Source: Perna viridis
Lineage: Eukaryota
Length of the DNA stretch: 64,000 nucleotides
Reading direction: 5' to 3'
Assembly (NCBI GenBank): GCA_037379345.1
Contig: CM074512.1
Span: forward strand, 11,036,001 to 11,100,000
Part shown: in pieces, positions 2,971-26,796 of the stretch
Layout of the letters: every line of letters begins with the position of its first letter
How positions within the stretch are numbered: the stretch's first letter is position 1
The notes under the pieces: generated by a model
Told to the model about the DNA's origin: nothing
What the model saw: the letters and a program-made list of their open reading frames with translations, nothing else
The model's database searches: none
Made by a program: the position numbers and the translations under genes

Positions 2971-3159
2971 TACCAGTTTGGTGTTACTGTTGATGTTTCA
3001 CTTTTATATCTTCCGAATTGTTTGAATATCATTCAATTCAGACTCATATTAGTTAATAAACATTTCATATTGATAGTAATCTACGTGCAATGAAATATTA
3101 AGTATCAAAACTTGTTTATGGTTAGTTCGTGATTGTTATAGTAGTAAAACTACTCCCAG

Positions 3160-3306
3160 TTTTTTGTCCAAATTGTTCATTTACTCTGGTTGCTTTGTAC
3201 GTATTATTTGTTATGTTCTTTGTTGTGTTTGTTTTCCCGTCTGGTCTTAGTCCCTGGATTGCATTCTTTTGATTTCCGTTACAATCTTGGTTCTCTTGAT
3301 TACTCT
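3160..3306 (+). mobile_element. Older 3'-terminal fragment of the same Penelope-like family (also about 43250-43395; a shorter piece at 22536-22598 and 62764-62826)
   Basis: Shares gtctggtct..gtccctggatt..att.ttttgatt.ccg....atcttggttc.cttgattactc with 1277-1343. Confidence 0.6.
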
Positions 3307-3708
3307 TTTCTTTACTCTTATCAACCAACTGATTTTAATCAAAATATGTAGATTTATGCGTATCATTTTCACATAATTAGTTCGAATCCCATGGGCTTAA
3401 TTCGTGAACCTCTGCGCATTGTTTTCATTTCCATATTTATCTGTAATTTAAATATATGTTTTTCTGTATCTAATGTGGTCGGAGTGTATTTTCATTATTT
3501 AATGGACATGTTAGTCTTTTAGTAAGCTTTGTTTGTTTTTGTTTGCATGTTTGTTTTGTTTTGTTTTATTTGCTTTTTTGTTGTTGGTTGACATTTTCAA
3601 AATATTTATTTCTTGTCGTTATATTTGCTGCTTTTACAAGTGGGGTATAGTAAGCACAACAGCTCTTCATTTTCATAATAACATGCACCCCTTTTAAGTC
3701 TGTTTTGC

Positions 3709-3714
3709 TTTATT
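3709..3714 (-). terminator. Candidate polyadenylation signal of LLTP copy 1
   Basis: First minus-strand AATAAA I see after the stop codon (about 220 nt downstream); also present in copy 2. AT-rich context makes this weak evidence. Confidence 0.35.
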
Positions 3715-3931
3715 CTGCATTTTTAGTGTTACCTCTATGAATAGTGTGTTAGCTATAAGAGACTGGACACATAAGTTGGGTTTGGAGAGAAACAACAATG
3801 TTAGTTTTTTTTCTGCTCTACTTGTTTAATTATGTATAAAATCTAATAAAACCGTCAACAATGCAAAAAAAATTAAAACAAATCAAATGTCAATTACAGT
3901 TTGTTTCAATGTCCATTTTAGAATTAGAAAG

Positions 3932-4640
3932 TTAACGACATTTTTCTTCGACTTGCCAAGCATTTCCCAACGCAAATGCGTCAGATGTAATTTGGTGGTT
4001 GGGCATTAGCATGTCATCATAACGTTCGTGATTTAGGGTACCGAGGAGTCCTCCAGTTTTACCGAAGTACCATTTGCTTAGATCAATGTCTATCTTATCA
4101 ACATTGTCATCAGTTGAGATTTGGAATCCGTTTCCTTCAACAAACACCTTCCCTTCGTCAGCGAAAACTGTAAAATCTGGCGATTTGTAAGGTAATTTTG
4201 TCAAGGCTCCATCAATCCTTACCTGTAATATACAGCAAACAAAGCTAAGGTGAGGACAGATTTATAAAAAAAATATATTTGTCTTAGATATTAAATTGGA
4301 ATCATATATCAAGCAAAGAAAGGACAAAGAATGTTTAATTACTAGATTTCACTAAATTGTCATATCGTATAAGAAATTGTGAAAGACATTCTCTACAGCT
4401 AAGTCTATGATTAAAAGAATTTCGTGTAAAAATAGCTTACCTTCCCATCAGGTAATAGTTGAACGTTTTGTCTGTGAGCTGTTACAATCAACTTTTTCTT
4501 TTGTCTTGCAATGAAATTCAGGATCATGCTGAAATTTCCATCAATGTAATCTTTTGCAAGTACATAACTACATCGTCCACTAAAGTCATACTCTTGTCCA
4601 TCAAATGTGGTAAATCGGGCACCATCGATTGAGGCATGTC
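3932..4640 (-). CDS. Last two exons of copy 1: von Willebrand factor type D (VWD) domain
   Basis: GHASIDGARFTTFDGQEYDFSGRCSYVLAKDY and WYFGKTGGLLGTLNHERYDDM...NAWQV are typical of the LLTP C-terminal VWD; stop TAA at 3934-3932. Confidence 0.88.
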
Positions 4641-7600
4641 CTAAAACCAATAAGAAATGGAGTAACAATAAAAAGAGAACGGATATGGTAACACGAAATA
4701 AATGCCCTGGCGTATAACCTAAATACGAAGAAGTAAATACTTTCCGAGATCTCCAAAAGGTCTTCAAAGTAAGCTCTGAAAGGGCACGAAAACAAACATA
4801 ATAAAATCCATGATAACAAATCGAAGACACTTCTAAAAAGTAAAATTTTCAAGTAAAATAACAACTCAAAGAAAATGACTGTTTTCCACCTACTCCATAG
4901 TCAGGGAGTAAATTACAAGTTATCTTTATATCTAAAAATACAAATATTGTGTGGTGTTTAATAGTAAAAACATATAACTAGTTCAATGTACGAACATGAT
5001 AGAACTATCCAAACCAAAATTTACATTTCACAGTATACATACACACTTCAAAAAGAAAGTAAGTAAACAACTGACCTTCCCAGCTTAAATGAGGTATGTA
5101 GTCCTCAAGAGAACCCAGCTTCACGTCGGGGATATTTGGAATTCTTGGCAGATACTTCCGTAGAGAAATATCAGATACAGATGTCAGGGATTTGACATCT
5201 ACAGGAAGATAAAGATCGATTTCTATTTTTCCATTAGCTATATCGTACATGATGATTTTAGATTTGAGGAGATTGGCGAGTATGTCTTTGATCATGGTAG
5301 CCTCTTTAGTGGCGTCTTTTTTAACTTCCTCAACAGCCTTGTTAACAAGTGCGTTCAGGTTTTCCTCAAATTCCCAGTATTTATAAGCTGAAGAACCCTA
5401 TAAATTAAGGATTAAAAATACAAGTGTATTAGAGAGTATATGAAGTATGTAGATGAAAATATTATGTACTTGATATTTTTCCTTATGATCCAATACCCCT
5501 CTTCCAATTTGATGTAGAATGGTGTAAGGCACAGCCATGATACGTTTCCTCATAATAATGTCAAATTCCGTACAAAGATATAACCGTCTTCTTTCAATGT
5601 TTTTTTTCCCTCTTCATCATATCATACTTCGCGTTCGCATCTTAGAGTTATTTGAAGGCAATTTAAAAAGGGAGTCAACATTTCAATATATTTACCATGT
5701 TATAAACTGGAGTAGGAAGTGTGTTAATAAGGCCTCTGTTTATGTTTTCTCTAACGTTGTATATAGCAGACGTGTACTGGTTTGCAATATTATTCATATG
5801 GTCTTCCATGTTCATATTTTGAAGTTTTTTCGTGTAAGGTTGCAACCTTTGAACGTAAAGCGCTGTGTTTACTTTTCCAATCATTCCTTCAAAAGACAAA
5901 AAACTACAGCTATAAAAAAATTCTAATACTAACAATCAATTAAAAAGCAGTTGATCACGTAAAAACTTTCTCAAAAGATTTGTTTAACAAATGGAATCTG
6001 ATCTTTGTAAGTTTAATTCCCGCTGGTATACCTATAGTAGATTCCGCGTTATGAAGAAATGTGTCTTAAATTTACGTAAACTCTTGTAGTACCTTGAATT
6101 TTATTGACAGTATTGTAATTAATGCCATTCAACATTTGTCTAGATGAACCATACAACTCGGAAGAGTAGTCTCCAAATCTCTAAAATATAAAAAAATATT
6201 TTTATTGCAATTTTCATTTACGTTGTATTTGATTTAAATGATTTAATACAGTAGGTTTACAAAATGTGTCATTTTCATCATGCATTATATTGATAATAGT
6301 CAGTTTACTATTACCCGTGCGGTCCATTTGAACATAACCTATTTGCAGGTTTTTAAAGTACACCATGTTAACGGATTATTTCTCTATGGACAGAAAAAAG
6401 TATAACAGTCATTTCTAAGTTGTTAAGATTTGTACATACGACTTCTGAACATCTCTTACCTGTTGTAGTCCTTGTATACTGTTAATATATTCATCAAGTC
6501 TGTTTTTCATTTGGCAACTTCTCCATGATTCCAACATTTTATGTTTTGTCTCACTTTAAAACATTGAAAACATAATTAACATAATGCTAAAAAAAGAAAA
6601 GATAGAAATTAATTATATAATTGATGAAATGCACTAAAATCATTTTATTTCAGGGGTAAGTTGAATGTTTTTATAATTCTTACTTTATATGATACCAAAC
6701 TGCTATTTGTAACTTTATAATATATCATACCTTCCTTTTGTCATGGCTGTTTGTAGACTGTCAGAAACATCTCTTAAATAATATGCGTTTCTATCTCTCA
6801 AGGAGATAATATCGGACATGATTTCATGAGCAGCTTGGGTGTATGGTTTAATACTTTCTTTACAGGCTGCTCGGATGAGCTGTTTTTTGTAATTGATTTC
6901 TCTTCTAATTTCATCGTGGCTGATTTTCAACGATCTAGATGATCTTATAAGGTAATCCTCTGTTCTTCTCTTTAAAACATCCTGTATGAAGTATGAAATT
7001 TACTCTTTTCACAGTTAAATATATATTTTTCTGTATTCTCAAAGAACTGAATATTCGTGAAGAATTATAAATATAATGAATATCATCTCTAGTCTAAGTG
7101 TGTGAAACAGATGAAAACAAAATATAGATCCTATTTAATCGCAGTTTGTTTTTTAAAATTATTATTATTAATTGTAATGTTTTACCTTAAGGTCTGTTAG
7201 AAGAGTTGGACGCCAGTTAACACGGGTATGTAGTATTCTAGATGTTTTTAGTCGAAGGTTCACTAAACTGTCGACCATTTTCCTGTCATTATCATTTCTG
7301 TATAGTTCAGCTAATAATCCTTTAACATCATTAAACTCTGTCTTCACATGAAGTGTATTCTTAGGGTTATCTGTCAGAAACAAATACCAGTAATTACATA
7401 AATGCTAAAATTACATTTTAAATTGCCCAGTATGAATATCGAACACCATGTAATGGCAATCTGAAATAGTTCTAAACAATTTATGTATCGGAAAGATAAT
7501 ACGATTTGAGTTAAACAAAGGTGAAACTAATATGGACATGAAGCATAATTTACCAATGTCATAGTTCATGTTGAAGTCCAAACTAACATCTTCTGGATCA

Positions 7601-10600
7601 ACTGTTAGTTCTGTATTGATTGGTTTCGAATCATCATATAAGTTCTTGAAAGACAGTCGATAAGGTTTGGTATCAAATGATGCCTCCATTGACATGGATT
7701 TTACTGGAGATCTAACCTGAATGTGAAAACAATTATTTCTAAGCTTTATTAAACACCATTTCAGAAAGTAAAGTTTCATTATATGGCAAGTTTTATAATA
7801 TATCAAAAACTGTAGTGATCCAACGAAAAATTTGTTTAAACAAATGAAGTTAATTCTATACAAGCATAAAAAATAAATTAAAAAAATTGAAAATTTACCT
7901 CGATTTAATTGTTGATTCATTTTCGGTAAAAGACGACTTTATAGTAAAAAAAAGTGAAAGCCAATCTGTATTAATTATGTGCACTTGTATGCGTAAAGGA
8001 AAGTACGTGTTCGATGATGGGAATGTACCTTTAGGTTAAGTTGCCTTCTGATTTTATCAATTTCTGTCATCAAAGCAATGTTCATTGTCTGTCGTTTTGC
8101 AGTTAAATATTTGATGTCAATATCAGCGGCCAGTTTGTCACTTCCCTTTGTTATCTGAGCCTGTGTCTGAAAATCAACTGTGGTGTATGGGTGGCTAATT
8201 CCAAGCTGTAGTTTATACTGATCACCACGGCCAGAGATATCTTCAAGTTTAGAACTAAGCGTTAGAGTTTTGCGTGAATCTGTGGAATATTTGAAAGCTG
8301 TATGTCCGTCATATATAACATTTCCACTGTTGACTAGCATTCTTGTGTCAAACTGTACAGACTGGAAAAAAATTAAATTAACTTTAAAAAAAATATATAG
8401 AAAAAACTTTAAAAAAATTAATGATGAATTCGTTTAATAAAGGATGACATGCGTTAAATAATCTAACTGAAACTATAGTTTTTGTCCGTAAATATATATG
8501 CTTTCAAGGTTATAGTTTCAAAATATAAGTATAATTTACATACATTCAATGTTAAAGCCATGATTTAAGAATTATAGTCTACTACCATCCAAGAATGAAT
8601 ACGTTATAGATAACCATACCTCTCCAAGACTTGGCAATTCCAGTGCCAAACTGACTTCATTGCCGTCACCTCTTTTCTTGTCTATTTTCTTGACAACAAA
8701 GCGCTTATTTTGATCTCTTTCTACATCCCAAGAAAATGACGTTTCAAAAGTGTCCAAACCATAAGAACTTCTTTTGAAACGGGATGCTTCGATTTTCCTT
8801 GACGGGATGATCAATGTGACTTTTTCCGTGTTTGACCTGTAGTCAAATTCCAGTCCATACGTCTCTCTGTCATCTTTCAAGAAATGCAGTGCTACTTGGT
8901 TGTAATCACTTCTTTTTTTGGAACTTGCCCGTATTTCATATATTTTTCCAACACAGTTGCCTTTGTAACTTATAACTTGTGTATTGTCAGACCAATCTTC
9001 GTTGTATGTCATATCAAGTCTACATTGGCTATCACGTTCAAGTTTGTTCCAGTTGACAAGAATATGTGATTTCGGACTAAATATATTCTGTATTTCAAAT
9101 TGCATTGGTCGTGGTTCATTAATGCCAACCTTTAAATGAATTTCTTTACCTTGTTGTCTTCCTTCAATCTCAATATCATACACAGTATTTTGGTTGATCT
9201 TCATATTGGCTAAAGCTACAATGATGTCACGGTTTTTTGGCATGTCTATTTTGAATTTACCGTCAAGGTTGCGGAGTGCATCACATGGGGAAGATAGCAA
9301 GAATGTGACTTCCGTTTCATATATTGAAGCATCAAATGTAATACCTTTTGGCGAATTAAAGAATCCATCTGCATGTACAGTTAAAACATCCCGGCTTCTA
9401 TCGATATTCATGGACAACCGGATATCTTTAATTCTCTGAATGCCGGATTGTATCCGTGCTAAACCCTGAATGCTGTTTTTAGTCTTTTTAAAATTGGTCT
9501 CGACGTCAACCTCTGGAATAGCAGATCCTTGCAAGTTAAAGCGGAGGTTATTTGGGTCATTAATAGATGAAGTGATTTGATGTCGTTCGTATCCTGTAAA
9601 TGGAGTTTCGATATTAGCATTTAAAGAGGTAGGAGTCATTTCGCCAGTCAGAATGATCCTATCACTTCCACGGGCAATATTGCTTTCCACAATCACATTT
9701 TGACCATCGATGTTAAGTTTATAGAACGCAGAGTATCTATTTTTAGGTGTAACTATGAATGCATCGACTAATTTCTTATTCATTTTAAGCTCTCCGTTCA
9801 GTAATGGCTTATTGTCCTCTAATGAAAAGTACATTGCAGATTTAAGGTTGTCATCTCTATAGTCATGGCTGTATCTGCAGAGGACATGTGGAGCTGTTCT
9901 TGAAGGAATCAGTAAATCTGCATTCAGATAAATATCTGTAAGTTGATTAAACCTCAATGTTACTTTTCCTTCAAATTTATTGTCTGGTGCATATTCAATG
10001 TGTCCCGATGTTGTAAACGATCGCAGGGTTCCAGCATGTTCAAGATTCCCTCTGATATTATGAAATGGTGTTTGAAGTCCGAATGATCCTGAAATAGTTG
10101 GCTTGACATGAAAAGATGCACTTGCTTTTATTTCTTTTTCATCCAATTTTGCAAGGAGTGATGTTCTGAAATTTGATATTTCCCCATCATGTTCTACTTT
10201 AAGTTGTGAAATTCTGGTAGTTCCTGCAATTTTAGACGAGATTTTACTATCGATGGACAATGACGAACCTCGTAGATTGACTGTAGTTTCTTCCTTTATT
10301 TCGTTCATATTTCCTACAGATGCTTTTGTATTTGAAGCAAACGACTTCGTGTCAAAACGGATATCGTATTCCATATTGATATCTTCTAGCATCGGTGTTT
10401 CCAGAAGCATACTTCCTTTCATAGATTGGTATCTAAATTCATGATTAGCTACTCCTCTCACCTTGTTTTTCCCATAACCAATTGATGACTCAACTTTAAA
10501 CTGGTTAAGTCTTCCATCTCCGCTTACAATAACTTCAAAGTCTTTGGTGAATGGTGTTTTGACACAAAGTTCAAACAGGAGACCGTCCTTTGATTCAACT

Positions 10601-13600
10601 TTACTGTTAATCTGTGCTTTGTATTTTCCACTTTGTATCTCCCATTTACCGAAAAGCATAGACTCATTTTTTATATAAGTGGCTTTTGCGGAATTTGTTT
10701 CGAACCCAATTATTGGAGTCTGAATTGTAAGCTCAAGCCCTCTGTTAAGATTGAAAGAAACGTCGGAAGAAACAGCCTTACGGTTGTATGTCAGCAGTGA
10801 AAAGGATCTGAAATTATGTAGATCACCCGAGTGTTTCATGCTTATCGACAATTCATGCTGCATTGCACCATTGTAAGATATTTCGGCTCGCCCATTAAAG
10901 TTCATGATCTCAGCATTTTGTTTAAGGACGACAGTTATGTCATTGGTGCTGGGCAAATTCAGTTTGAGTTTTCCATCAATTCCATTTGTAAAGTCAAGTT
11001 TCAAGTCGACTGACATTTCCTGATCGTTCACCGAGACAAGTCCCACAGAGGAGAAGTCCTTCTGGAAACCAGAAATGGAGAATTTTGCTTTAATACTATA
11101 TTGCTGTTTTCCAGCATATGATGTTGTAAGTTGTGATTCAAAGTTCTTCAATTCACCATGATGCTGGAGAGATATTGTTATATCTTCAGTAAAAGGTGAC
11201 TTGAGATTAGCCTGAACATCAATGTTTTTACTTGTATCAGCAAAAATCTCCGAAGATATTGTTTTGTCATTGTAAGTCACTTTTCCCTCCAGTGTAAACT
11301 TCCTTAGTGTACCTTTTAGTTCAAAATTCGTTGTCAATGAGTGTTGCATTTTACCAGAGTATTCCAGCTGACCACGAGAGGAGAAATCTTTCAATGTACC
11401 TTCGGTAGTAACTTCAAGTCGTAAGTCGGAATACTTCGGTGTCCTAAGAACAAAAGCAATATCCATTTTTGATAGTGTGTCAACATCTAAACTCAACGAT
11501 GTTATCTTATTGTTGAACTTAAAGTTGCCTTTGGTTGTAAACTTTCTCAAATTTCCTTCATGTTTAAATGTCACAAGAATTTCATGCTTATTCTCTTTAA
11601 AAATTAATTCTGCTCTAGATTGCAAGTCCCTTGAAAAACCTGGATGATCAACAACAAGCTGAATGTCTGACCACACGGGTGTTTTCAAAGTTGTCTTCCC
11701 ACTTAGTCCAGAGGTTGTGTCAACATCAAGAGACAATGAAGACTGTTTGTTGTTGTAGTTTATTGTACCTAAAATATGAAACTTATCTAGAGTTCCATCA
11801 AGTCTGAAGGTTACCAATAAGTCATGCTGTTTTGTGCCACTGTATGTAACTTCGGCTTTTGATCGTATATTTCTACTGTTTCCTTGGTGCTCGAAGGAAA
11901 TAATGATATCATTGGTAAACGGGGTTTCGATGCGACCATTTAATTTTATTCCGTTTGTCATATCCGATAATACTGCTACTGAAACTTTTTGTTTGTTATA
12001 TTGGCCGTTTCCAGCGATGTCAAATTTTTTTAAAGACCCGGTGCTTTGAATCAAAAGACCAAAGTCATGCTGTTTTGCTCCGCTATAAGAAATATCTGCA
12101 CTGCTTTTGAATTTCTTTAGTGAACCTGAATGTTCAAATGATATTTCAATGTCACTGGTAAATGGTGTTCTAAGTATCCCTCGTCCTTTTACATCACGAA
12201 TGGCATCGAATTCTATCTCAATGGAGAACCGTTTTTTGTTATATGCTACTGAACCAGATGTCCTAAAATTTTTATGGTCACCTATATGTTCAAATAAAAA
12301 CTCAACGGAATGTTGTATTCTGCCGCTGTACGTTAAATCGCCATTTGTATGAAAATTGAGTAAATCTCCGTTGAATTCTCCGTTTGCAATCAGGTCATCA
12401 GTAAAAGGAGTTTTTAAGACAACTTTTCCACTATATCCGTTGGATCTTTCAAGTGCTGCCTCGAGAGATATTTTTTTTCCATTGTACAATCCTTCAACAA
12501 AAGCACGCTGTTTACGTAACTGAACGACAACGTTTATTTCATGCTGTTGTTTTCCATTGTATATTATTTCCCCATGGCTTATAAAGTCATTCAGATCTCC
12601 TTGATGGGAGATTGACATCCTTATATCTTTCGTGTTTGGTGTTTGTAGTGTCAAAGTAAGAATGATGTCTCTGGTAGTGTCCAATATAATGTTCAAGGAT
12701 GCTGACTTGCTGTTGTGTGCTGCTGATGCAGACAATTTGAATTTTCTTAAATCTCCCTCAAGTTTGAAGGCTGACGATAAATAATTTCTGGATCTTCCAT
12801 AGCTAAGATGGGCGCTGTTTGTAAAGTCAAATAAGTTTCCTCGGTGTTCTACGACAATTTCAATGTCATGGAAAAACGTTGATTTTAATGTAACAGTACT
12901 TTGCACGCCGTTAGTAATATCAAACATGACGTCGCTAGTTACTTTCTGTCTATTGTATTCAGCATTTGCTTTTGATGAAAACTTTTTGATATTACCGGTA
13001 TGTTCCAATTCTACTAACATTTTGTGTTGTTTCCGTCCACTGTATGTTATATCACCCGTTGTTCTGAATCCATACCGCCCTTTTCTTGTGTGGATGAGTT
13101 CGAGTGACATTGGCAGAGAAATTGGTGTTTCTAATTGTCCTGTCATTTCAATATTTCCGAGGAGTCCTTCGCTTGCTCTTACTTTACTTGAAGCGGACAC
13201 TTTGTTTTTATTGTATTCGCCATTTGCCGACATTCTCCAAGATTTAAGGTTACCTTCAAGATTAAATGATATTGCAAATTCATGCAGTTTCTGTCCATCA
13301 AATGAAATGTAGGATTTTGATGTCATTCTGAGCATGGAACCACTTGAGTCAGAACTGAATGATATGTCCCTTGTAAATGGACTTTTTATGTAACCGCTGA
13401 CTTGTAAGTTTTCTGGCCTCATATCAACTGAAAACTGAGCTGATGCTGATTTGTATCCGTACTTGATTTCTCCATTAGACAGAAATTTCTTTAAAGACCC
13501 AACATGGTTTACTTTCAATGATAAATCTTTTGTGTAAGGTGTTTTGAGGTTGGCATTTAAATCAATACCGTTAAGCGAAGAAAATTGAACATTTCCACTT

Positions 13601-16600
13601 CCTGTCATGTCATCTATGTTAATGTAAGCACTGGTTTGGAAGTTTTGTCTTTGACCTCTATGATTTAATGACATTCTTCCGGACTGTAATATTCTGAAAG
13701 GAGATTTTAGAGTCATTTCAACGGAGGCATCGTTCTCAAAGTCTATATTCATCATCATTTCTCCACTCTCAGTCCCGAGGCTGCATTTGAATGTAGACGC
13801 AAATCTATTCCAGTTTCCTGTAGTTTCCATTGATGCGGTCAGGTCTTGGGTATATTTTGATCTGAAAGACAACTCTCCTTTCATTGTTGGTTGTTTCGTT
13901 AGTGTTAGTTTTCCATTTACTAATGTCTCTCTTCCATACATGGCTACAATTTGACTTTCATGAGAAATCTCGTCCTGTAAAAATGAAACTTTTATAGGCC
14001 TGTAATTTGGTGTGACAACCGTTAATTTTCCTTCAACTGGACCAAGTGTTGTAAAAGATACATCTATTTGGCTTCTACTCTTTTGGTACAAGGTTTCGAA
14101 TCTTGAGACAAAGTTGTTTGAAGTTCCAGAATGGGACAATTTAGCAGTCATATCTTCCATTGTCTTAAAAGGTGTCTTTACATTGACTGAAGCTTGTAGT
14201 CCAGATTCTAAATTGAGGGAAGTTACAAGGCTAATTGTATTTGAATCTGAATAGGTGATTGTACCTTTTGTCTCTAAGGTCAATTTGTCTGCAATATGGC
14301 TTAGCTGTGCCTTCAAATTACGGTAACCTCTGAAAGGGGTTTGAAGACTACCAGATACATGGACTGGAGACGATTTAAATAGAAGATCACCAATAATAGT
14401 ATCCTTATTCTTTGACATTTCAATATGGCATTTGAAATCTTCAATCTTTCCATCGTGAGTGATTAAAGCCTTTATAGCTTCGTAGCCTTTATGTGGTGTC
14501 CTGATGATCATTTCTGCTGAAACAATTGGGTTCAATTTTGATTTAATATTTGCTGTCCAAATATTTTTACCGACTTTAACTTCTGTTTGGCATTTGAAAT
14601 TTCTAACATCCCCTTCATGAGATATGCGGCTTGATATCTTTCTAAGATTTCTGAATGGTGTTGAAATTGATATTTCAATGTCAAGGTTTTTCACAAAGTT
14701 GAAAGACAGTTCGCCGTCAATTTCTTGCTTCTTTCCCCATTCAGCTTTTGTCTTTGTTCTAAAATTTGATAATCCACCTTTATGAGAGACAGAAAAGGCA
14801 ATATCATCCATCCATGGAGATGACAGCTTAATGGATCCTTTTATTCTTTTTCCAGATGTTCCATCGAAATCAAGTTTTATAGGTTTCCTTTGACCGTAGT
14901 TTATCATTGCAGCAGATTTTAAATCTTTCTTATTCCTTAAGTGCGAGAAGGAGGCAGATATGTCATTCATTGACGGTGATTTAATGTCAATCGACCCCTG
15001 AATCTTCTTCCCATTTGTGAATTTTACATCCAAAGAGTGTTTTTCTTTTTTAGTTAGCTGTAACTCTGCTCCAGATGAGAAACGTTCCCACGACCCTTTA
15101 TGACCTATTCGTAAAAAAATAGGATCGTCGTCAGGAAGGTTCAACTTTGCACTTATACTGTGATCATTTTGGAATTCAGTTTTCAGTTCGGACGAATAAA
15201 CTATTCCCTTTGGGTACTCAATCTTTAGTTTTGTAATATAGCCCTCTGTAGTCGCCTTGTTCGATGCAGATGCGGTAAAACGTCTAAGCCGTTCAAATGG
15301 TGTCACAATGCTGAGGTCAGCATCTAATGTCTTGTCAACCAACAAAATCCTTGAAGTAAATCCAATCACTCTTCTGGGAAGGTATTCAAGCTTAATGTCT
15401 GTCCTTGTCTTTTCATTCTCTGGTCGGTTGGAAAAAGTAATTTCACTATAGGGTATTTGATGGAAAGGTGATTCAAGTCGAACATTTCCAGAAATCCCAC
15501 CTATTCTGTTCAGGGTTGACATAATCCTTATGTTTCCGAAAAAAGGCTGCATTTCAATGGAAGCTGAAGAAGTCATAGACTTTATGTCACCTTTAAATTC
15601 TATTTCGGTGTTAAAACGTTTGAAGCTTTCTGAAGGTGTTGAGACAGTTAGCGAAACGTATTTTGTGATGCCAGTCTTTAATTTTCCCTCAGTTGCCATG
15701 ATCTCTCTGTCATGATACAAAAAGCGACCAGTCGCTATCAACTCCCCATCTTGAGTTTTCAGGTGAGACTCCGTTGTGAAAACATTTTTACTGTCTTTAC
15801 TCATTGTTACAATTGTATCCAAACTTCCATAGCTGTGTGAGTGACTCACTGATATTTGCCCAGCTGAAGATGGTGTTAATCCTTTCACAGTGTATTTAGC
15901 AAAAGCTTCTCTCCATTTCAGATTGTGCCTTCCTTTGACTTCTGCATTATAAATGTTCTTGTTCAAGTTGAGACTAATGACTGATGACATGTCATTAAGA
16001 GTGTTTTTGTGTTCCCATTTTGCAATGTATTGCCTCTTCCTTATACCGATTAAAACATTTCCACTTTGTTGAACCATAAGACCTGCTCTGTCGTGTGTCA
16101 ATCGTCCTTCGTAATTGTATTTTTTGCCATTGAGATCAAGTGATAAGCTGTTTTTCATGGTGTTGTCCTTGTGCTGGTGGCTTACGGCAACAGAGACACT
16201 TCTTACAGAAGGAATATTAGACTTCACTCCCAGATGACCTCGGTATACATCGTTTTCCTTCTTAGCAGATCCATGAAATTGTATTGACTTTTCAGCGGTC
16301 TGAATTTTCACAAGAGATTTTATCTCGTTTGTAACATCATGGGATAATTCTAAAGAAGTTGATTGGAAACTCTTAAATGGAGTTTTCAGGTTCATTGTTG
16401 CATGTATACTGTGAAAACTTATTGGTCTTTGTAAAACCAGCATATATGAAACCCGGTTGTCAGGTTTCCAACTGACTTCAAAGTTAGTTTCATACTGGCT
16501 AGTTGCTGAGACATGATCGAGGTCGATTTTTACATATTGCAATGGTTTGTATACTGAATTGACAGTCAAGCTGCATTGTGTCTTTTCGTTCTTCTGTATA

Positions 16601-19600
16601 AAAGAACCATCAAGAGAAAGTTGTTTTGCACCATTGGTCACCAGATCAAAATGGGCGCTATCGACGTTTCTGTTCATGTCCATCTTACTGTTTTGAAAAG
16701 GTGTCTTAATTCTCATAAAAGCACTTAAATCTTTCTTGCTCCTGACATCTACTTGGGTATCAATAAGGACTTGTTTAGACTTGTCATTGCTTACATCCCA
16801 TTGAATATCAAACAAACTGAAGTAAGATGAACCTTTTTTCTTGGCTTCTACGTGCCCTTTGACACGTCTAGATGGAACGGTGAAATCTCCAGATAGTCGT
16901 AGGAGTACAGATTTTTTATATTGAGTGTTTATTTCTGCTAGGTAGTCATTGTTCAGTTGTGAGCGAATTCTGAAGTTTCTTGGGTCAAGACTGATCATTC
17001 CTTCAACATGAACGGGATCCCTGCCGTCCATTTTGACGTCAGTACTGACGTCATATTCGTCGTTTCCAATTTTCATTTCACTTACAATCTTACTTTTATG
17101 ACCAGCAATGATTGCAGTTAATTCGTTGCTGTACCGTTTGTTATTTTTCTGTTCCATGTTATTACTAATAGAAAAGTCTTTTTCATTCCATTTTAAATTA
17201 GCTTCTCCGATATAGGACAAGAGTTTTCTTGACTTGTCTTTTAGTTTTAATGTTGCAGATGCTGATTTCTTTTTACCATAGACGACTCCTATATTGCTTT
17301 CAAGATTTTTAGGAGTGTGTCTGTGACCACCTTTGATCTTAAGATCTACTCCCTACAAAATGAATTGACACATTTTACTTTGCAGATCACGATGAAAAAT
17401 TTAAGCCAATTACCAGATTCCTTTTAACTTTTCCATTTAATATTGAAATATTAAAAGTAACTAAGATTGCCTAATCGGGAGATTAGTTGCGATGAAATAT
17501 TTTATTGATGACGTTTAGTCAATTCTTTGATTCTTTTCTCAACTTTTTCCGAAAAAAAAGCTCGAATAAAACATTTTCTTATGTATACTGTTTGTGAATA
17601 TTACACTCAATCAATTACCATAGCCAAGTGTTTAATATCAGCAGTGACGTCCAGGTCTGATTTCTTCCATCCAAGTTCATGACGTACTAAAGATGACACA
17701 ATAATTCTCTTATTTTCATCTTTTTTCTTTGCTCCGTATTTCAGATCAAAGTCGACTTTAGAAAGTCTTCCTTTGTTACTCATATCGGTTGAAAAAGACA
17801 CGTCATAGTCACTGTTCCTTTTGAATGTGATTTGTCTATAATAATATAGTAAGTTACAGTTAGTCCTAGTAATTAGGTTCTTACACTGGTTTCTACAGAA
17901 TATTCGTTTTAAAAGAATGGTAAAAATGTATGAAAGGGTTTTTAACGGTGGGGACGGCTGGGGTACAATGGATCGAATGGAAACTCGATAAATGTAGGCA
18001 GGGAAAATCTAAACATTTAAAAAAAATGTTTACAAGTATTAGAACATTTTGATTTGACAGTAGTGGGTTTGTTGAGCGACAACGAATAGGATGTGTTTCA
18101 TTTTCTATGTTAAATACTAATATTAACAATTGAAACCAATGTACTTACTTCCTAAAGTATGACAAATAATTAAGGTGGCATATATATGTCTGCCGCAAAA
18201 AAAAACAGTCATTTATGGAAAAGTCAAATATTGTAACTTAGTATTGAAATTATGAAGGTCATATAAAATATACTTAGAAGAAACATGACCACTTAGTACC
18301 TGAGAGTAATTTTAAATAGACAAACTTAAGAGATTTTTTACTTACCCATTCCCGTTTACTGACCAGACACTTTTGGTAAACCGGTAGCTAACTTTACTGT
18401 TGCCAGTGATTCTGTCTCGGCTGACCTTAGGAATAACGTAGTCCATGTTTACTCTCGAAATCAATGAGGACTTCTGGAGAACGAAGTTTGTATTGCCTTT
18501 CAGTCTAAGCACCGGAGTAGTAACATCCACTTTAGACTGGTACCTTGTACCAGACTTTTTCACAGATCTGACAATTTTTGCTGTAATAAAGGTATGTTGT
18601 TTTTAACATTGAATCCAGATATCTTTGATTTTGTTGGTTGTCTAAGCGGATCCATTCTACAAGTTAAGATTACAAAGGGCAAGTATAAAAGAAGAGTCCC
18701 ACTCTTTAACATTACCTTTAGGAAGAGTAATCAAGGGAACCAAGGTTCTAGTGGTAATCAAAAGAATGTAATCGAGGGACAAAGACCAGACATGAAAAAC
18801 AGACATACACAACAAAAAACATAATGTAACTAAAATGATACATACAAAGTAGCAAAAGCAAATGAGCAACTCGGACTCCACTAAAAATATTGAATTTTAA
18901 TTTTAGGAAGTGAATTTTAATATTGTTTTTGTTTTCATTATTCCACAGCAATATTAAATTAAAAATTTAATCGTAGTTAAATCATAATCTAAAATACTTA
19001 ATCTTTAAGAAATATATTTAAAAAATATATAAAATTATTTGTCTTAACTTACTATATAGTTTGATTTTCTGATCTAAGAGTCTGTCTACAATAAGATCAA
19101 CTAAGATCAGCGATCCAGTTTTGTATTCCAAAGATCCTCCAAATGCTACCTTTTCTTCTTTTGGGGTTCGTACAGAAAGGAATGGCATGAATTTTATGGC
19201 TTTTTTGGTTTGTGTTTTCTGATACCTGGTTTCGAAACTGTAGTCTTTCCCGGGTTCAAAAGAGATAGAAGTCTTAATCGACTGCATTGCCTTCTTTGAA
19301 ATCAGGCTCACTGAAATATCAAATATAAACATGGGAAACTGACGGAGATATTACTTTACTACTAGGTAGTGTGAATTAAAGTTTGTGTTGTCATATTATG
19401 TCTATTTAATTTTATACTGTTTATTGTGAAGGGTTATTCAATTGGCACTTTTCTGCTTGCAGTAACATTTAAATGGGAAAAGAACTATATGATTCCCTTT
19501 ACTTCTGTCCGTCAAATTATCAATCTTACAATTTTACCTTTAGTGTGGATTGGTTGTTTAGATAAACCACTTAGGGTAATCTCGCCATCAAAGTTTTTAC

Positions 19601-22600
19601 CAGCAACAAATTCCACCTTACTACTGAGTTTAATGTTCTCCGTGTTAGGTACAATAATTTCTACATATGGATTGTATGTGAATAGTTGTCCTTTCCTGGA
19701 TTTAATCCATTCCCCAGTGATGGAATATTCGTTTTCGTTGTCAATTACGATTCTTCCAGTCAGTTGCTTCTGTTTACCATCACCTACAAGGGCCCCTGTG
19801 AAATAAACNNNNNNNNNNNNNNNNNNNNNNNNNNNNNNNNNNNNNNNNNNNNNNNNNNNNNNNNNNNNNNNNNNNNNNNNNNNNNNNNNNNNNNNNNNNN
19901 NNNNNNNNNNNNNNNNNNNNNNNNNNNNNNNNNNNNNNNCTTTGTTGAATAAAGAGTTGTATTATTAAATAAGATCAAGTACAATAATATAAATTTGAAT
20001 TTTCAAGCTTAAGTGTAAAATATTCGGCAGTTTTTTTCTGTACCTCTAACCGAAGCTTGTTTCCATGGTGATATTAATGTGACTTCAATTACTGGATCTG
20101 GTCTAAACAAAACATCAAAAATCATCTGACGATTGACCTTCGTAGATCTTGGTGTGTTGAAAGCTGCTCTGATTCTTGATTCACCTTTTGACTAAAATAA
20201 AACAATATAAATAATGTTTGATTAAATACTAGTTAACAAAGTCAAATATTCTAATTTAAATGTGATAGTTTGATTTTATTAAAATGGTAACAAGAGACTA
20301 TTTTATCGTAAAAAATATGAATACATGAGTCTACCTTGACAAGTTTGTATTCCAAGTTATAGCTGGTGTGAGTGTCACGTTTATGGAGAGTTATCCCGGC
20401 ATTGATTGGTCCAGTCAATGGGAAGTATGGCGCGTCAGCTTTTAGTGAAGCATTAGGATATTGAATTTCAGCACATAGTTCAAGTCCTGTTATCTTGGAA
20501 AGTTTGTCACCTGAACAGACTTTCTTTGTCTGCCTATTCTTTGTTATCATTTTCTGTTCTCGCTCCACTTCGCGATTAACAGTGAAAAAAGCAGTTCTGT
20601 AAAGTAAATAAAAGATACAAAGACAGACGAATAAAATCCATAGAATATTGTATTATATCGGCGTTAATGCACCAAACATGGAAATATAATTCCTGAGCAC
20701 TAAACAAAACAATAAAAGTCATCTTCATCTTATGATAATATTACTTCAATACAATTGGAAATCAAAAGATATTTTTAGAAAGTTTCAGTGATAACATACT
20801 TGACGTTAAAAACTTCAACTTTGTCGAAAGGTGTTTTCAGCTGTCCACTTAGGATTTTTCCCTCATGCAATTCAATCTGTCCTTCAACTGAAGAAACGGA
20901 GTGCATTGTTGAAACCATTTTCATTCCACTTTTAGTGACGAAGGCATCAATACTCATCATGCTGTTGATTTGGACAGAACCACTAGAATATAAAATATTG
21001 ACCACCATTTATTGTTTTGATACTATACTGGAACATATGTTTTACGGTTAATATAGCTGTTGAATGGTGCATAGTAAAGTTGAATTTCAAGTTCGATTCA
21101 ATTAAAAACTCTAGTGACATATCACATAACCTTTGAAAGGAAAATAATTTTGTCTAATTTATTAACTTTGCCTTAATAGAGATGCATACTTGACTCCTTA
21201 CCTTGGTTTCAATGACCCTTCAATAGACAGACTTGGTGTCTTGGTTGTCAGTCTGCGGATGTCGAATTTACCAGATGCCGTTAGATCAATAGTAGCTGAT
21301 CCTTCAATTGTCAAATTGAGTGGTAGACCAGCAATAGTTGGAATGATCATACTACTGTCCATAAACATGAAGTTCTGTGTAAAAGTATAGTCCTTCCTGT
21401 TGGCTAGAGCATTAACAATGTCCATAATATTAATAGATTTTCCATTCGTTATGTCATCAAGTCCGGCCAGTCTGGTGTACATTAGTTCATTTCCAAATAC
21501 TCTCAAGTAGATTTCCCCCTTTAATGCATCCATTTCAGAACCATACTACAACAAATTTATTACAGACATATCATATGGGACTAAAATTGAAATTTCAAAA
21601 TAATAAAATGCATTTAAGATAAGGAATATAAAAATCAAAATATCAGTCACTTTTACATTGTTATGTTTTTAATATATCTAAATAATTGACGCATTTTTAT
21701 GATAGGTAGAAAGAAAAGATACAATGATACCTGTTTATTAATAGATTCCATTTTTCTGTCGCTTATTCCGCGAATTGACTGCTTTGAAACGTCCTTCATA
21801 TCGTCTGACCGGAAGTTTCCATTTGGTCCGAAGTAGGATTCTAAGAAGTACTCTAAACCTTCAATTCGTCCACCTATCTCTAGAAGATTGACTGAGTGTC
21901 CGAAGAGGTCAAAAGTTATGTTTGTCATGGCAGATCTTGGCAAGAATGACTTTGAAGACCAGATTACATTACTATCAATAGACGCCCCTGCATTAAGCTT
22001 TTCCAAAAACAAGGAACCTTCATAATTTCTGGAATATTTCAGTTTTTCTAGATCAAAATGCTTCTTAAGTTCCCTGTCATTAATTATGCGTTTGATTTCC
22101 TGTTTGAGGGGATTAGAGGTCTCTGCCAGATTAGTAAGATGTGACCATACAAAAGATCCGACTTGGTTCACCTCTTCTCTTTCCAACAGATATCGGACTC
22201 TAGAAAGTACAATGTCGGACGGACATTTCATGATAGCAAGGTAAGCAGCAATTCTTAGCTCAGAGTCTTCATCTCTGTTTCTAACCAACGCCATAATGTC
22301 ATCACGCTGTAAAATAACAAAGTTCTCTTAATCGTTAAGATAACGTGATCATATAGAAAAATTGTGAACCACATAACCTTCTAGCTGTAAAATTAAATTA
22401 ACACACTTTTAATATGGGATTAAAACTGAAGTTTCTTTTATCAAAATAATAAAATGCATTTAAGATAAAAATCAAAATACCAAATACTTCTACAGTTTTT
22501 ATGTAATGATTTTTTACATATATCTAAATAATTGACCTGGTCTGGACCAAGTCCCTGGATTACAATTATTTGATTTACGCTTGAATCTTGGTTCCCTTTA

Positions 22601-25600
22601 GTAATCTTTAGACTATACAATTACCAGTTTGTTGACCATTTAACACTTAGCAAGTATTTCTTTTTTTTATACTTACCTCGACAGAACATGGCATACGCCT
22701 GAAAGCTTGGATGGCTGCTAAACGAATCTCCGTTGGATTGTCTTTCCTCGACATGCACTTGGTAATTGAGCTGACAGCGTTCTGGACATAACCAGCATTA
22801 CCAAGGGATTTCAGACTCATAAGAACCTGTAATTGTAAATGCAAGAGTACATTATAATTGGCAATAGAAGTAGAGATTATAGTACTTGAAAAATTCACGG
22901 AAAATGCCATCTTCCCAATGTCAGGGCTGCTGTGTCCACTTGTGTTCGTTGGAATGTTACATTGAGAGGATAGAAAAGTGCAAGTGTTCAGAACTTGAGT
23001 GAATAATTCCTTTTTAATATTACAATACAAATCATTGTCGTAATTTATTGTTTACCTTGTTGGTGTTGTCTTTGTCAACATAGCATCCAACTCCGATTTT
23101 ATTTTCAATAGCAGAGACCATTGATACAATGTCAATGTCATTCTCGCAAGATTCCCTTCTACAGTAGGAATGGATAAGTGACGATATACCAAGCATCGCC
23201 TTGTCGTTACCTTCAGATGACAAAAGAGGCTGAAAATGTAAAGATAATGGTTATTATGATACACGAGAATACGAGAATACCGTATTCCATAATGCTTTGT
23301 TAAATTAGGTGGATATCAAACTTTTGCATTCTGAGCAACTTCAATGATTATATTCACATTAATTTAGCTTTAATTTTAAGAATCTATTTAGATGAACATT
23401 TGATTACTTACTTTGACTTCAATGAGCATGTCTTTGGTGGGATCTTTGATGAATGCCAGTGTTGTTAACCACATGTTAGCTTCAATTCCTGTCACTTCCT
23501 TATTCCCAATAAGTGTTGCGATCATTCTCAGTGACGCTTGTGTTCCTAACATTGGGATGGCGTCCAGGAAAAATTTCCTTTAAAGTTAACAAAACATAAT
23601 CAATCCACTTTCCGCAATAACAACAGATTGAGATGTTGTTTAAAAATTCAAACAAATAGGCAAGCTTACTAATATAGTTGTTCAATGTACAGTTCTAGTC
23701 ACCATATCTATCCTGTTTAATACTTACTCTACTCTTTTCTGGTTCGATTTACAGAAACTAGCCCCCTTGACGATTCTGAATACTTGTTCTAGATCAGTAC
23801 TGTCTAATGCCTTCATCAGTCGTACCAGGCTTACAAATAGTTTTGGTGTATCTGGCTTCACACTGTCGGAAGTCGATGAACAGACCTCTCTCAATTGTCT
23901 GATGACGTCATCTTTACTTCCTCTATTCCCATTCGAATGAGCAAATATCAGAGGTTGGCGTTCTTCAATAGGAACTGTCAAGAAAAAAAATAAAAATATT
24001 CAGTCAGCTTTTTCTTTTGGAAATACCGATTTATCGCATTACTTTCTTTTGTGAATGTGGTTCAAAATAAAACTAAAAAGGAAGTTTAGAATGATACAGC
24101 AGCCATATTCTACTGTAATTTACCTTGATCGGCTGAAGATGATCGCTCAGTCAAGTATTTCAATGTCTGGGTCGTTTTTGTGACAGCACCGCTTGAGTCA
24201 CGTGAGAATGGTCTTAACACATGCTCCTCTACACATACACTAGTCTGTATGATGCCTGCTTTACTTATGTCCTGTGTACATTCATGGCTACCTTTCACCA
24301 GAGGCAACGACTGGATTTCCTGTTGAATAAAATCAATCATTTGTATCTTTGATTTTACTTTAAAAAAAAAACGTTTTGATTGTTTTATTCGTTTAAATAT
24401 ATTCTAGTGCTTGAAATACATTAATTTTAATGAGCAGAATTGAAGAAATTAAACAATTCAATTAAAAAAAAATGTTTATTATACCACCAAGTGATCAAAG
24501 ATGAACAAGATCAGATACGTAAAGCACTTACAGATTGGACCCTGTAAGGAGTGCCTTGCATCAGAGTGTTGTAGCCGTTTCTTTTCACACAACCAAGAAG
24601 GTTTTTACTCTTCTTGATAGTTGTGGTGTACCATCCATTATTGACCAGTTTGTATTCGGCACTACATTCTCCAGCAACGTCGGTCTGAAAACACCAAACA
24701 TCAATTAATAATACAATCTGCACTGTGAAACAAGTTTAAACAGTCATCCAATTAACATAAGTCCTGAAATAATTAGTCCTACGATCAAGCGGTGACTTAG
24801 GCATAACTGATGAATGTCTTTTCACTTTCTATCTCTGTAAACCTTTCTCATGAGTAAAATTACTGAAGTCTGTGATAAATGAGGTTACTGAAAGATTTCA
24901 TTTCATACCATTTCTTTATTAATACTGGACATTCAATTTAAAATAAATCTAAGAATCATCTGATGCTATAAACATTACGCCATTCAATAAGGTTATAACA
25001 TATATAAACTTTGGTATTTGACCCACCTCCATTATGGTTTGGTCTGTTTTGAGATCATCCATGGAGTTCTGGAGAGCCGACAGGATACCACGCTTGACGT
25101 TGAGTACCCATGTCTTCTCTTGCTTAGAGGTACAAAGTTCAGCCACTACACCATCTTGAAATGAAAACGCCAGGGGTAATGCTTCAAGACTCCTCTTGAA
25201 TTCACCAGTTGAATCGGCGTCAATTTGGTTTTTTGGTGCATTCTGGTCGGTCTCATGTAGACGAACATCTTTGAGCTAATAAACCAAAAGGAATATAATT
25301 CTATACTGGGCAAGAATAGAATGTTTGCGCATTTGTATTATTCTTTAAAGAAATTGATATTTTAAATTCATTTTAGTACAAAGTTAAAACGGTGACCAAG
25401 GCAGATAATTCTGGAAACTTATCTTTTTGTTCCGCCTTCTTTCGACGTTTCAAGCTATGAAACTTTACATTTGACTGTGTAGAATAGTGTAGATTGAATA
25501 TAAAAAAGACTATTAATGGTTGTTAATTTACTTAATCAACAAATCATTCCCCTAAGTTGAGCGCTATTATTTACCCTCATGCTGAATTCACATTTAGACA

Positions 25601-26355
25601 AAACGTTGATGTTGACTTTAGTTGTCAGTTTGAATCCGGCTTTGTCCTCGGCTGCCCCTTGCATTGTAGTGTCAATGTCAGCAGTGTAGTCATATTCGTA
25701 GGTCGTTCCTGGTTTGTATCCAAATTTCTGTGTTCCTGTTTTTTACCAAACAAATTCCTTGACAAGTCATTCGGTTTCGTTTATTAAGCGACGAGGGGAC
25801 ACAAATCATTCAGAAAAGTGTTTGAAGGTTAATGGTTTTGTTCTAAGTAATAATTATTATTATTGTTATTGTAATCATTTTTTATCATTTCTCTTGTTAA
25901 AATATAAACGAGTCATCATTTATCGTTATACGTTACCTACCTGTACAACGTGTTGAGCATCTTTCTGAGTTAATAATAGGTCCTAAAATTATACAAAATT
26001 AAATGAATTTTCTTTGATTATTTAGCTGTATTCACAATTTTTACTTCTGAAGAAAAAATAGCGTATCCCGTTACAACAAAAACAAATATGGTAATACACT
26101 ACAAAATATTTTATGAATATGTTAGTGCAACCTCTCCATTTTCGGGGACTTAACACTTTCATTTTGTATTGTTAAAATAAAATATTGTCATAAAACAAAT
26201 ACACGACACAACACGACAACATAATGGGTTGCATTATAGTGGCAAAACAATTACTTTCTAACCGCACTTTTGTGAGTAACTGATACCTAGAAAAACAACT
26301 TACCCGCCAATGTTGAAAACACAAAAGTCAATAACAATAAAAATTTGAGCTCCAT
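3932..26355 (-). CDS. Large lipid transfer protein (apolipophorin/apoB-like lipoprotein precursor), copy 1; 30 coding exons, about 4,970 aa
   Basis: Hand-built GT-AG exons, all phases compatible: 26355-26304, 25982-25941, 25735-25575, 25275-25027, 24684-24532, 24319-24124, 23974-23728, 23577-23412, 23229-23056, 22826-22677, 22306-21731, 21545-21202, 20982-20800, 20596-20335, 20191-20044, 19795-19538, 19310-19053, 18580-18346, 17835-17619, 17352-8620, 8361-8029, 7716-7554, 7370-7186, 6981-6731, 6553-6460, 6180-6093, 5886-5696, 5397-5076, 4640-4441, 4222-3932 (sum 14,922 nt including stop). Signal peptide MELKFLLLLTFVFSTLAG. LLTP motifs YKPGTTYEYDY, WVLNVKRGILSALQ, ETDVAGEC, LKSLGNAG, ELRIAAYLAIMKC, NQVGSFVWSHL, FLPRSA, NLLEIGGRIEGLE. 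C-terminal VWD. Confidence 0.9.
8620..17352 (-). CDS. Giant internal exon 20 of copy 1 (8,733 nt, 2,911 codons): amphipathic beta-strand repeat region
   Basis: Acceptor ttttgtag|GGA at 17352 and donor GAG|gtatgg at 8620; phase 0-0; contains the 2,882-aa track ORF. Alternating hydrophobic/polar residues and recurring (L/I)x(T/S)PF and HxGxLxxF motifs. Confidence 0.92.
18725..18887 (-). mobile_element. 3'-terminal fragment of the Penelope-like element in an LLTP intron (also at about 58945-59107)
   Basis: Near-identical to the reverse complement of 1181-1343 (tttttagtggagtccgagttgctcat...cttggttcccttgattactc). Confidence 0.8.
19809..19939. other. Run of 131 N inside LLTP intron 15 (copy 1)
   Basis: Seen directly in the sequence. 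Confidence 0.95.
21202..26355 (-). CDS. Exons 1-12 of copy 1: signal peptide plus Vitellogenin_N (LPD_N) lipid-binding module and start of the following beta-sheet region
   Basis: Family-diagnostic motifs WVLNVKRGILSALQ (exon 4), TDVAGECSAEY (exon 5), FLDAIPMLGT (exon 8), LKSLGNAG/EIRLAAIQAFRR (exon 10), NQVGSFVWSHL and FLPRSA (exon 11), YLRVFGNEL and PTIAGLPLNL (exon 12). Confidence 0.9.
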
Positions 26356-26424: not shown

Positions 26425-26796
26425 ATACTTGAAAGTACAAAGTGGCATTGCTATTTTTGTATTGTGACCCGTAATTAACGCTGTCATTACTAGGACTTTG
26501 TAACAATGTCATCTGTGATGTATCTTTTATCTTTTGATATTAACGCAATCAGCATATGAAATCATATGGTCGTTGTACTTTTTAGTTTTTGTGGGTAATG
26601 ATAACTTTCTGTAGTATATCTGGGACTTCATTTTTATTGCGCAATGTTGATTGGACCCGTTACAAATTCTATTTTTTCATGTGTTAATTTTTTTAATGTA
26701 TGTACTTTATTTTTTGTAGCAGTCTTCATGAATATAAGACAAGTAATGATTCAAAAACTGACTCAATTACTTTTGTTTCTTATTCAATTTGTCAAT

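Follow-up and report, generated by a model that had tools for sequence, protein, structure and literature searches.

A giant, repeat-built exon in an apolipoprotein gene of the mussel Perna viridis and the long amphipathic beta-sheet that it is predicted to encode

Introduction

What kind of protein is encoded by a single uninterrupted exon of 8.7 kb in a mussel genome, and how could such an exon have grown? The question is raised by a gene on the minus strand of a 64,000-nucleotide stretch of Perna viridis DNA (contig CM074512.1, positions 11,036,001 to 11,100,000), called here the window. The gene occurs in the window twice; copy 1, described first, is the one in which a preliminary description made from the sequence recognised a large lipid transfer protein (LLTP) with a possible apoB-100-like beta-belt. 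We consider it likely, from structure modelling and from known homologues, that the gene encodes a secreted apolipoprotein scaffold of the APO branch, in which the repeat-built giant exon would supply most of a long amphipathic sheet wrapping a lipid particle.

The giant exon and its transcripts

Spliced alignment of the Mytilus edulis ortholog (P0009) resolved copy 1 into 30 exons with GT-AG introns throughout, encoding 4,973 aa (Table 1). The giant exon, exon 20 (17352..8620, minus strand), is 8,733 nt or 2,911 codons long, has no stop, is in phase 0-0 and lies between an AG acceptor at 17352 and a GT donor after 8620, within a 2,926-codon stop-to-stop frame (17352..8575, minus strand) in the list of open reading frames (ORFs) of the window. 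It holds 58.5% of the coding sequence, and the remaining 29 exons measure 42-576 nt, so the preliminary description of an LLTP of about 5,000 aa with 58% of its coding sequence in one symmetric exon was accurate. Its comparison with human APOB also stands, exon 26 of that gene being 7,572 nt long (PMC3640928, in excerpt).

Three raw RNA-seq runs (from at most two studies) were aligned to positions 7950-17900. Sense-strand reads were present in every bin of the giant exon in 3/3 runs (depth 176-616, 18-81 and 164-439), and the depth climbed smoothly toward the 3' end and dropped only in the two intron-containing bins. The splice joints listed were those at the ends of the exon, 8361/8620 (564, 71 and 415 reads) and 17351/17618 (148, 7 and 115 reads), with no internal or exon-skipping joint above the listing threshold in any run. 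The giant exon is spliced whole, as had been expected. The gene accounted for about 0.2, 0.03 and 0.15% of the reads, and no apoB48-type editing site was found among the 40 RNA differences listed of 65. The boundaries of exons 1-18 and 22-30 rest on homology, except for loose-end reads at 8027 and 17836.

An annotation artefact, with the giant exon in reality split by introns or skipped, could be argued from the ability of the spliced aligner to place GT-AG introns inside it and from the shorter middle of the annotated M. californianus model (P0001). Against this stand the continuous read depth without listed internal or skipping joints in all three runs, the frame being open in copy 2, in three copies of paralog A and in paralog B (described below), and the M. 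edulis ortholog, which is alignable through the entire exon at 41%; we regard the artefact as hardly conceivable. The two introns that the aligner had placed inside the exon were dropped and the pieces merged, because the RNA reads show none. Aligner-placed introns within the paralog giant exons were dropped on the open frame alone.

Domains and family placement

Pfam searches of the window's own exons detected LPD_N, DUF1943, DUF1081 and VWD, the last on exons 29-30. PF01347 (LPD_N / Vitellogenin_N) was above cutoff on exons 4, 10 and 11 and is complete in ortholog P0009 (E 2.8e-96), while DUF1081 on exon 14 scored 40.3 bits (E 4.6e-10) against a cutoff of 25; the giant exon itself had no Pfam domain above cutoff. 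The LPD_N / Vitellogenin_N module places the protein in the LLTP superfamily and DUF1081 places it in the APO family. DUF1081 (PF06448) is described as specific to APO sequences and missing from vitellogenins (PMC1783640, in excerpt), which have the order LPD_N-DUF1943-VWD and typically 1,600-2,400 aa (PMC1783640, PMC10799875, both in excerpt); with DUF1081 and 4,973 aa, the mussel protein does not fit that class. The best solved-structure match of P0009 was human apoB100 residues 46-1017 (E 2.5e-49), and lamprey lipovitellin matched at 1.3e-26.

The family was analysed in 138 proteins (135 search matches, the window protein and two paralog models). Trees were built from the N-terminal ~1,000 aa, with 72 of the 138 proteins in the FastTree alignment (71 kept) and 44 in IQ-TREE; P0001 was dropped, as over half of it was gaps. 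They are rooted on apoB, contain neither a vitellogenin nor an MTP outgroup, and carry labels from database names, the dLp label being assigned from length and furin sites. The window protein is sister to the Mytilus orthologs (FastTree support 1.0) within a bivalve/mollusc Apo clade; the lophotrochozoan-type clade has a support of 87.7 in the approximate likelihood ratio test (SH-aLRT), and the sister group of the mollusc clade is formed by the arthropod apoLp/apoLTP/dLp-like proteins (joint node 96.9). Mollusc Apos have been reported to form a clade, with Biomphalaria BgApo1 of 3,607 aa peaking in the digestive gland (PMC10799875, in excerpt). Orthology and the LPD_N-DUF1943-DUF1081-long middle-VWD architecture assign the protein to the Mytilus apolipophorin-like orthogroup, whose members from M. 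edulis (P0009, 4,988 aa) and M. trossulus ('apolipophorins-like', P0010, 4,958 aa) have the same four Pfam domains and the same length. No structural or biochemical description of the Mytilus or other mollusc Apos was found in the literature searched (most subscription journals and supplements lay outside it).

An N-terminal domain together with VWD was present in 94 of the 138 proteins, with a median of 4,330 aa; 71 had at least 4,000 aa and 21 at least 4,973 aa, including the window protein and paralog A, and other long relatives have 4,100-7,000 aa. Only long proteins passed the searches, and the counts are therefore evidence that proteins of this kind are common but do not give their share of the family. 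The rarity of an apoB-sized LLTP with VWD, implied by the preliminary description, is contradicted by these length-selected relatives and by the crab dLp/HDL-BGBP precursor of Scylla, 4,831 aa (PMC8416765, in excerpt), and its contrast with a ~3,300-aa insect apolipophorin arose from the choice of a short family member. An apoB-sized LLTP with VWD is the ordinary invertebrate APO build, to which insect apolipophorin is the short exception, and the existence of the gene, its size class and its VWD are already known.

Repeats and growth of the exon

A turn motif of the L-x-T/S-P-F type recurs in the giant-exon protein at spacings of 53-56 and 81 residues or multiples of them, the protein autocorrelation peaks at lag 81 (z 8.5), and an iterated hidden Markov model (HMM) detected 11 full ~81-aa units (aa 2672-3557) flanked by partial (~54-aa) matches. 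The ~54-aa unit corresponds to four strands and the ~81-aa unit to six, so that each is a multiple of a ~27-aa hairpin. The longer unit resembles the shorter one with one of its hairpins duplicated. Tandem Repeats Finder detected no long DNA repeat in the giant exon of the window, and blastp self-comparison of its protein listed no off-diagonal match; the repeats are detectable only via protein periodicity, motif spacing and the HMM.

Two paralogs in the same genome keep the flanking intron positions and phases and have near-identical sizes of the adjacent exons. Paralog A, present as three tandem copies of 97-99% identity (C2:6.30-6.43 Mb), has a giant exon of 10,326 nt (3,442 codons) with 246-nt DNA repeats of 82-83% identity, pointing to recent duplication inside the exon. 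Paralog B (C1:34.27-34.32 Mb) is more distant and has a giant exon of 5,667 nt (1,889 codons) in the equivalent position and a longer helical tail. The origin of the giant exon by exon-internal repeat expansion, as the preliminary description had proposed, is supported at the sequence level by the ~54-aa and ~81-aa repeats of the window and by the DNA repeats of paralog A.

Runs of the ~81-aa unit (8-12 full units) were detected only in mytilid proteins, and other molluscs had mostly shorter matches with 0-2 full units. Five unnamed database ORFs (P0002, P0003, P0004, P0006 and P0007; 2,724-4,625 aa; profile E 1.6e-45 to 2e-4) end at the homologous 3' boundary of the exon, followed by Val-Ser or Val-Arg as if reading into a GT donor. 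Giant exons of this type thus probably occur widely and in places reach a greater size: for P0003, from another organism, the exon would measure ~13.8 kb. The span from DUF1081 to the last strands, measurable in 78 of the 138 proteins, ranges from 1,557 to 4,974 aa; the 3,510 aa of the window protein lie towards the long end without being extreme. Upstream of the giant exon, exons 16 and 17 (19053-19795 of the window) are each 258 nt long, in phase 1-1 and weakly alike, so the belt may have grown there through whole-exon duplication too.

Table 1. Features of the gene and of its second copy (positions in the window)
Feature	Position	Strand	Basis
Exon 1: start codon, hydrophobic signal-peptide-like N-terminus (by eye)	26304..26355	-	spliced alignment; TATA-like box ~65 nt upstream
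Exons 2-11: LPD_N / Vitellogenin_N (PF01347) and beginning of open beta-sheet (PF09172, DUF1943)	21731..25982	-	spliced alignment, Pfam
Exons 12-15: remainder of PF09172 and DUF1081 (PF06448, exon 14, E 4.6e-10)	20044..21545	-	spliced alignment, Pfam
Exons 16-19: initial part of the beta-meander (aa ~1035-1357)	17619..19795	-	spliced alignment, profiles; RNA joint 17351/17618
Exon 20: giant exon, aa 1358-4268, amphipathic beta-meander	8620..17352	-	ORF, RNA, AlphaFold 2, Foldseek
Degenerate ~54-aa (four-strand) repeat block in exon 20, aa ~1975-2672	13408..15501	-	motif spacing, HMM, AlphaFold 2
Eleven tandem ~81-aa (six-strand) repeats in exon 20, aa 2672-3559	10747..13410	-	autocorrelation, motif, HMM, AlphaFold 2
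Exons 21-23: final beta-meander strands, aa 4269-4495, conserved out to insect apoLTP-like proteins	7186..8361	-	RNA, alignment
Exons 24-28: amphipathic-helix-type region, aa ~4496-4810	5076..6981	-	spliced alignment, profiles
Exons 29-30: VWD (PF00094) and stop codon	3932..4640	-	spliced alignment, Pfam
Copy 2, giant exon: open frame of 8,733 nt that differs from copy 1 at 36 bases	48840..57572	-	DNA comparison, RNA match
Copy 2, entire gene with 30 exons; its 4,973-aa product differs from that of copy 1 at 56 aa	44148..64000 in window; C2:11080148-11102657	-	spliced alignment

Predicted structure

The almost continuous strands of alternating polarity claimed for the giant exon were recovered in hydrophobic-moment profiles, where the beta-type moment exceeded the shuffled value in all 150-aa blocks of the exon. 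Their placement in the giant exon was correct as far as it went; the beta periodicity runs from about aa 986 to 4495, outrunning the exon by ~600 aa (~370 aa before and ~230 aa after), and is followed by ~315 helical residues before the VWD.

Two segments were modelled by AlphaFold 2 (AF2): a short one of four 81-aa units (323 aa; multiple sequence alignment of 6 rows, non-overlapping repeats from the window gene and paralog A) and a long one of aa 1975-2901 (927 aa, 17 rows). The short model has 24 strands, with a mean local confidence (pLDDT) of 88 and a global score (pTM) of 0.57; the long model has 69 strands and no helix of at least 4 residues (pLDDT 79, pTM 0.37). Both have ~13.4 residues per strand. 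One face of the predicted sheet is 57-59% large apolar and 3-4% charged and the opposite one 11-12% apolar and 42-44% charged, a face contrast of 3.4-3.5 that exceeded all 200 shuffles (maximum 2.5 and 2.0). With 13.45 residues per strand and a strand spacing of 0.49 nm, extrapolation to aa ~986-4495 would give ~260 strands (~3,510 residues) over ~128 nm, and a belt closing once would form a ring with a computed diameter of ~41 nm.

The comparison with the apoB-100 belt by AlphaFold and Foldseek, suggested in the preliminary description, came out in favour of a one-sided sheet: Foldseek ranked human apoB100 structures 9ea7, 9e9r and 9bde first to third for the long model (E 1.3e-10 to 5.6e-9, root-mean-square deviation (rmsd) 45-50 Å). 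A wide VIA-align search with the short model detected the lipid-binding sheet of lipovitellin chain B (Z 10.5, rmsd 4.2 Å, 123 residues aligned), the only match under 10 Å rmsd among the 50 listed. The VIA-align searches taken together also listed apoB fragments at Z 8-11 and rmsd 16-43 Å. We read the models as one continuous open antiparallel meander, not stacked sandwiches, and a continuous amphipathic beta-belt like that of apoB is predicted. As a lead only, ESM Atlas returned unnamed or 'VWFD-containing' eukaryote clusters (0.86-0.91), with low recognition value.

Several points weigh against the belt-forming scaffold. Short reads give no proof of a single molecule extending over all 8.7 kb. 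The AF2 alignments are shallow, their pTM values leave the global shape unpredicted, and the faces were assigned strand by strand from sequence and not from coordinates. With the short model Foldseek found no match at E<=0.001; VIA-align placed outer-membrane barrels (rmsd ~15-26 Å) and other beta-meanders as high as apoB or higher, and the apoB structural matches of the two programs have an rmsd of 16-50 Å. The match therefore shows topology and not function. Finally, the related insect LTP is a head-and-tail transfer catalyst (PMC4486166, in excerpt), so a long sheet need not close.

Proposed function and comparison with known systems

By analogy with apoB and the insect homologues, the LPD_N/DUF1943/DUF1081 head would start lipid loading with MTP in the endoplasmic reticulum, and the sheet would then wrap lipid, the protein being secreted as a bulk lipid carrier. 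In the models the ~260 ten-residue strands would form a single sheet with an apolar and a charged face, the helical tail and VWD possibly serving to cover the surface or to bind. With strands of ten residues, the width of the sheet comes close to that of a bilayer core. The weakest step is the closure: a belt closing once would bound the ~41 nm ring, for which a phospholipid-rich disc is likelier than an LDL-type core, because the sheet is about as wide as the bilayer core and because the large helical inserts of apoB are absent. The amphipathic sheet of the preliminary description is retained as a prediction; of the particles that it proposed, LDL-like or large discoidal, 'LDL-like' would fit less well than 'disc- or ring-like'.

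The apoB100 beta-belt was solved only in 2024. The mussel protein shares with apoB100 a homologous N-terminal domain, a long amphipathic beta-meander (in the mussel predicted), one giant exon and a C-terminal helical region. The belt of apoB100 has 1,774 residues in 120 strands over 61 nm with nine inserts (PMC11839476, in excerpt), whereas the predicted mussel sheet is about twice as long and has recognisable repeats. The mussel protein also differs in having VWD, which apoB lacks, and in that aa ~1000 to ~4500 contain no block of helix, whereas apoB (P0050) has one mid-chain.

Crustacean dLp (P0075, assigned by length, domains and furin sites) is of the same size class and has a very long uninterrupted beta-type region, but it lacks a Pfam VWD and the helical tail, belongs to a separate clade and is cleaved at two furin sites (~2,990 and ~4,100), releasing HDL-BGBP. 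The only R-x-K/R-R sites of the mussel protein, at 2045 and 4215, are both missing from the M. edulis ortholog, so the dLp cleavage pattern is not found. Insect apoLp-II/I and apoLTP, in the sister clade, share the order LPD_N-DUF1943-DUF1081-beta region-helices-VWD; their beta region is shorter, about 2,150-2,200 aa in apoLTP-like proteins and shorter still in apoLp. A furin consensus, the site that gives subunits II and I, follows LPD_N in insect proteins P0128 (at 721) and P0047 (at 786 and 815), with none in P0102. As far as consensus sites go, the mussel protein has no R-x-K/R-R before aa 2045, and P0009 has none anywhere, unlike the insect pattern.

The insect relatives raise the alternative that the mussel protein works like insect LTP, as a low-lipid shuttle catalyst whose sheet does not close as a belt but rolls up into a long groove or tail. 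In Drosophila, apoLTP has been described as a transfer protein of the apoB family (PMC3406001, in excerpt). The mussel domain order equals that of apoLTP-like proteins, the last mussel strands align to them, electron microscopy shows LTP with a spherical head and hinged tail (PMC4486166, in excerpt) and AF2 leaves the curvature unfixed. On the other hand, apoLTP has no special closeness to the mollusc clade, whose sister group comprises all arthropod APO proteins, and the transcript is abundant in 2/3 runs, whereas Drosophila LTP is a minor low-abundance lipid carrier (PMC3406001, in excerpt). No bridge-like lipid transfer protein with the repeating beta-groove of VPS13/ATG2 appeared among the 50 matches listed in any fold search, which speaks to some extent against a shuttle, and we consider this alternative unlikely.

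A role mainly as a yolk precursor for oocyte uptake and storage, like decapod apolipocrustacein, appears still less probable. APO-family proteins were recruited as yolk protein in decapods (PMC1783640, in excerpt), BgApo1 peptides occur in the snail ovotestis (PMC10799875, in excerpt) and the mussel protein has VWD; yet it carries the DUF1081 that vitellogenins lack (PMC1783640, in excerpt), and the Biomphalaria Apo genes are expressed most strongly in the digestive gland, and a primary yolk function was considered improbable for them (PMC10799875, in excerpt).

As a secreted scaffold, the mussel gene product would be a likely carrier of bulk lipid in mussel blood, and probably of carotenoid and lipophilic pollutants too. 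If this is true, a belt about twice that of apoB would give an unusually large fat particle. The case shows a giant exon growing through in-frame hairpin repeats, and the family forms a natural length series (anchor-to-anchor span of ~1,560 to 4,970 residues in 78 proteins, with three lengths in one genome), which makes the relation of belt length to lipoprotein size directly testable. We put forward a broader proposal, which we regard as doubtful: invertebrate apoB-family belts may be plain and insert-free, hairpin-repeat gain in one giant exon may tune their length and so act as a ruler of lipoprotein circumference (a ~40-nm disc for the window protein, ~29 and ~47 nm for the paralogs, and about 18 nm for abalone proteins with spans of ~1,560 residues), and the apoB100 belt may be a shortened, insert-decorated descendant. 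Amphipathic beta clusters were predicted earlier in insect apolipophorins, which may cover part of the novelty; in the literature searched we found no description of a repeat-built invertebrate beta-belt of variable length and no paper extending the apoB100 beta-belt to invertebrates.

The vertebrate PF21013 LOC400499 proteins (P0105-P0129) are VWD-bearing, beta-rich LLTPs that are closer to the invertebrate Apos than apoB is in the apoB-rooted trees. They are possibly an overlooked belt protein.

Tandem copies and neighbouring sequence

The second, near-identical copy, unmentioned in the preliminary description, lies 40.2 kb from copy 1, and a DNA search of the same genome detected exactly these two places. 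Exons 1-6 and most of exon 7 of copy 2 are beyond the window end, with the start codon at the window-equivalent position 66657. The copies differ at 36/8,733 bases of the giant exon (22 non-synonymous) and at 56/4,973 aa, and it is the letters of copy 2 that the transcripts carry.

The RNA read table covers 34 of the 36 differing exon sites. Run X23 had the copy-2 letter at 34/34 sites (at least 98.5% of reads), all three runs had it at 19/34, and run X20 had copy-1 letters at 42-58% at the other 15. By these counts the transcripts have the appearance of copy-2 alleles, with copy 1 silent or absent in those animals. We lean, with some reserve, towards copy 1 being a tandem duplicate that is silent or can be dispensed with, or an allelic haplotype that entered the assembly a second time, with copy 2 making the protein. 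In addition to the read counts, the two copies share upstream sequence only over the first few hundred bases before the start codon. Against a silent copy 1 speak its uninterrupted frame, its intact splice sites and TATA-like box, and the segregation of its letters in the transcripts of run X20. This possibility is compatible with the proposed apolipoprotein scaffold and concerns only which copy acts.

Introns 1-4 differ between the copies by 6.5-11.6% and the others by 0-5%, and the identity peaks mid-gene and declines toward both ends, a pattern that suggests gene conversion between tandem paralogs. A decayed third fragment was detected ~3,200-7,300 bases left of the window (C2 ~11028700-11032800); it shares ~83% identity with the 3' portion of the giant exon and has stops, deletions and 3' exon remnants. 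The divergence of introns 1-4, the adjoining fragment and the three tandem copies of paralog A, which are impossible from two alleles, argue against a pure assembly artefact, and from these sequence comparisons the two copies are likely true tandem duplicates kept alike by gene conversion, not alleles assembled side by side.

The 10-kb spacer between the gene copies contains a 155-codon open frame (32964-33428, minus strand), which resembles a reverse-transcriptase fragment of a retroelement. A short dispersed repeat with copies of 78-97% identity in both orientations was detected at 1181-1343, 18725-18887, 26794-27142 and 58945-59107; it lies in both gene copies within intron 17 and, at copy 1, where the shared sequence ends upstream.

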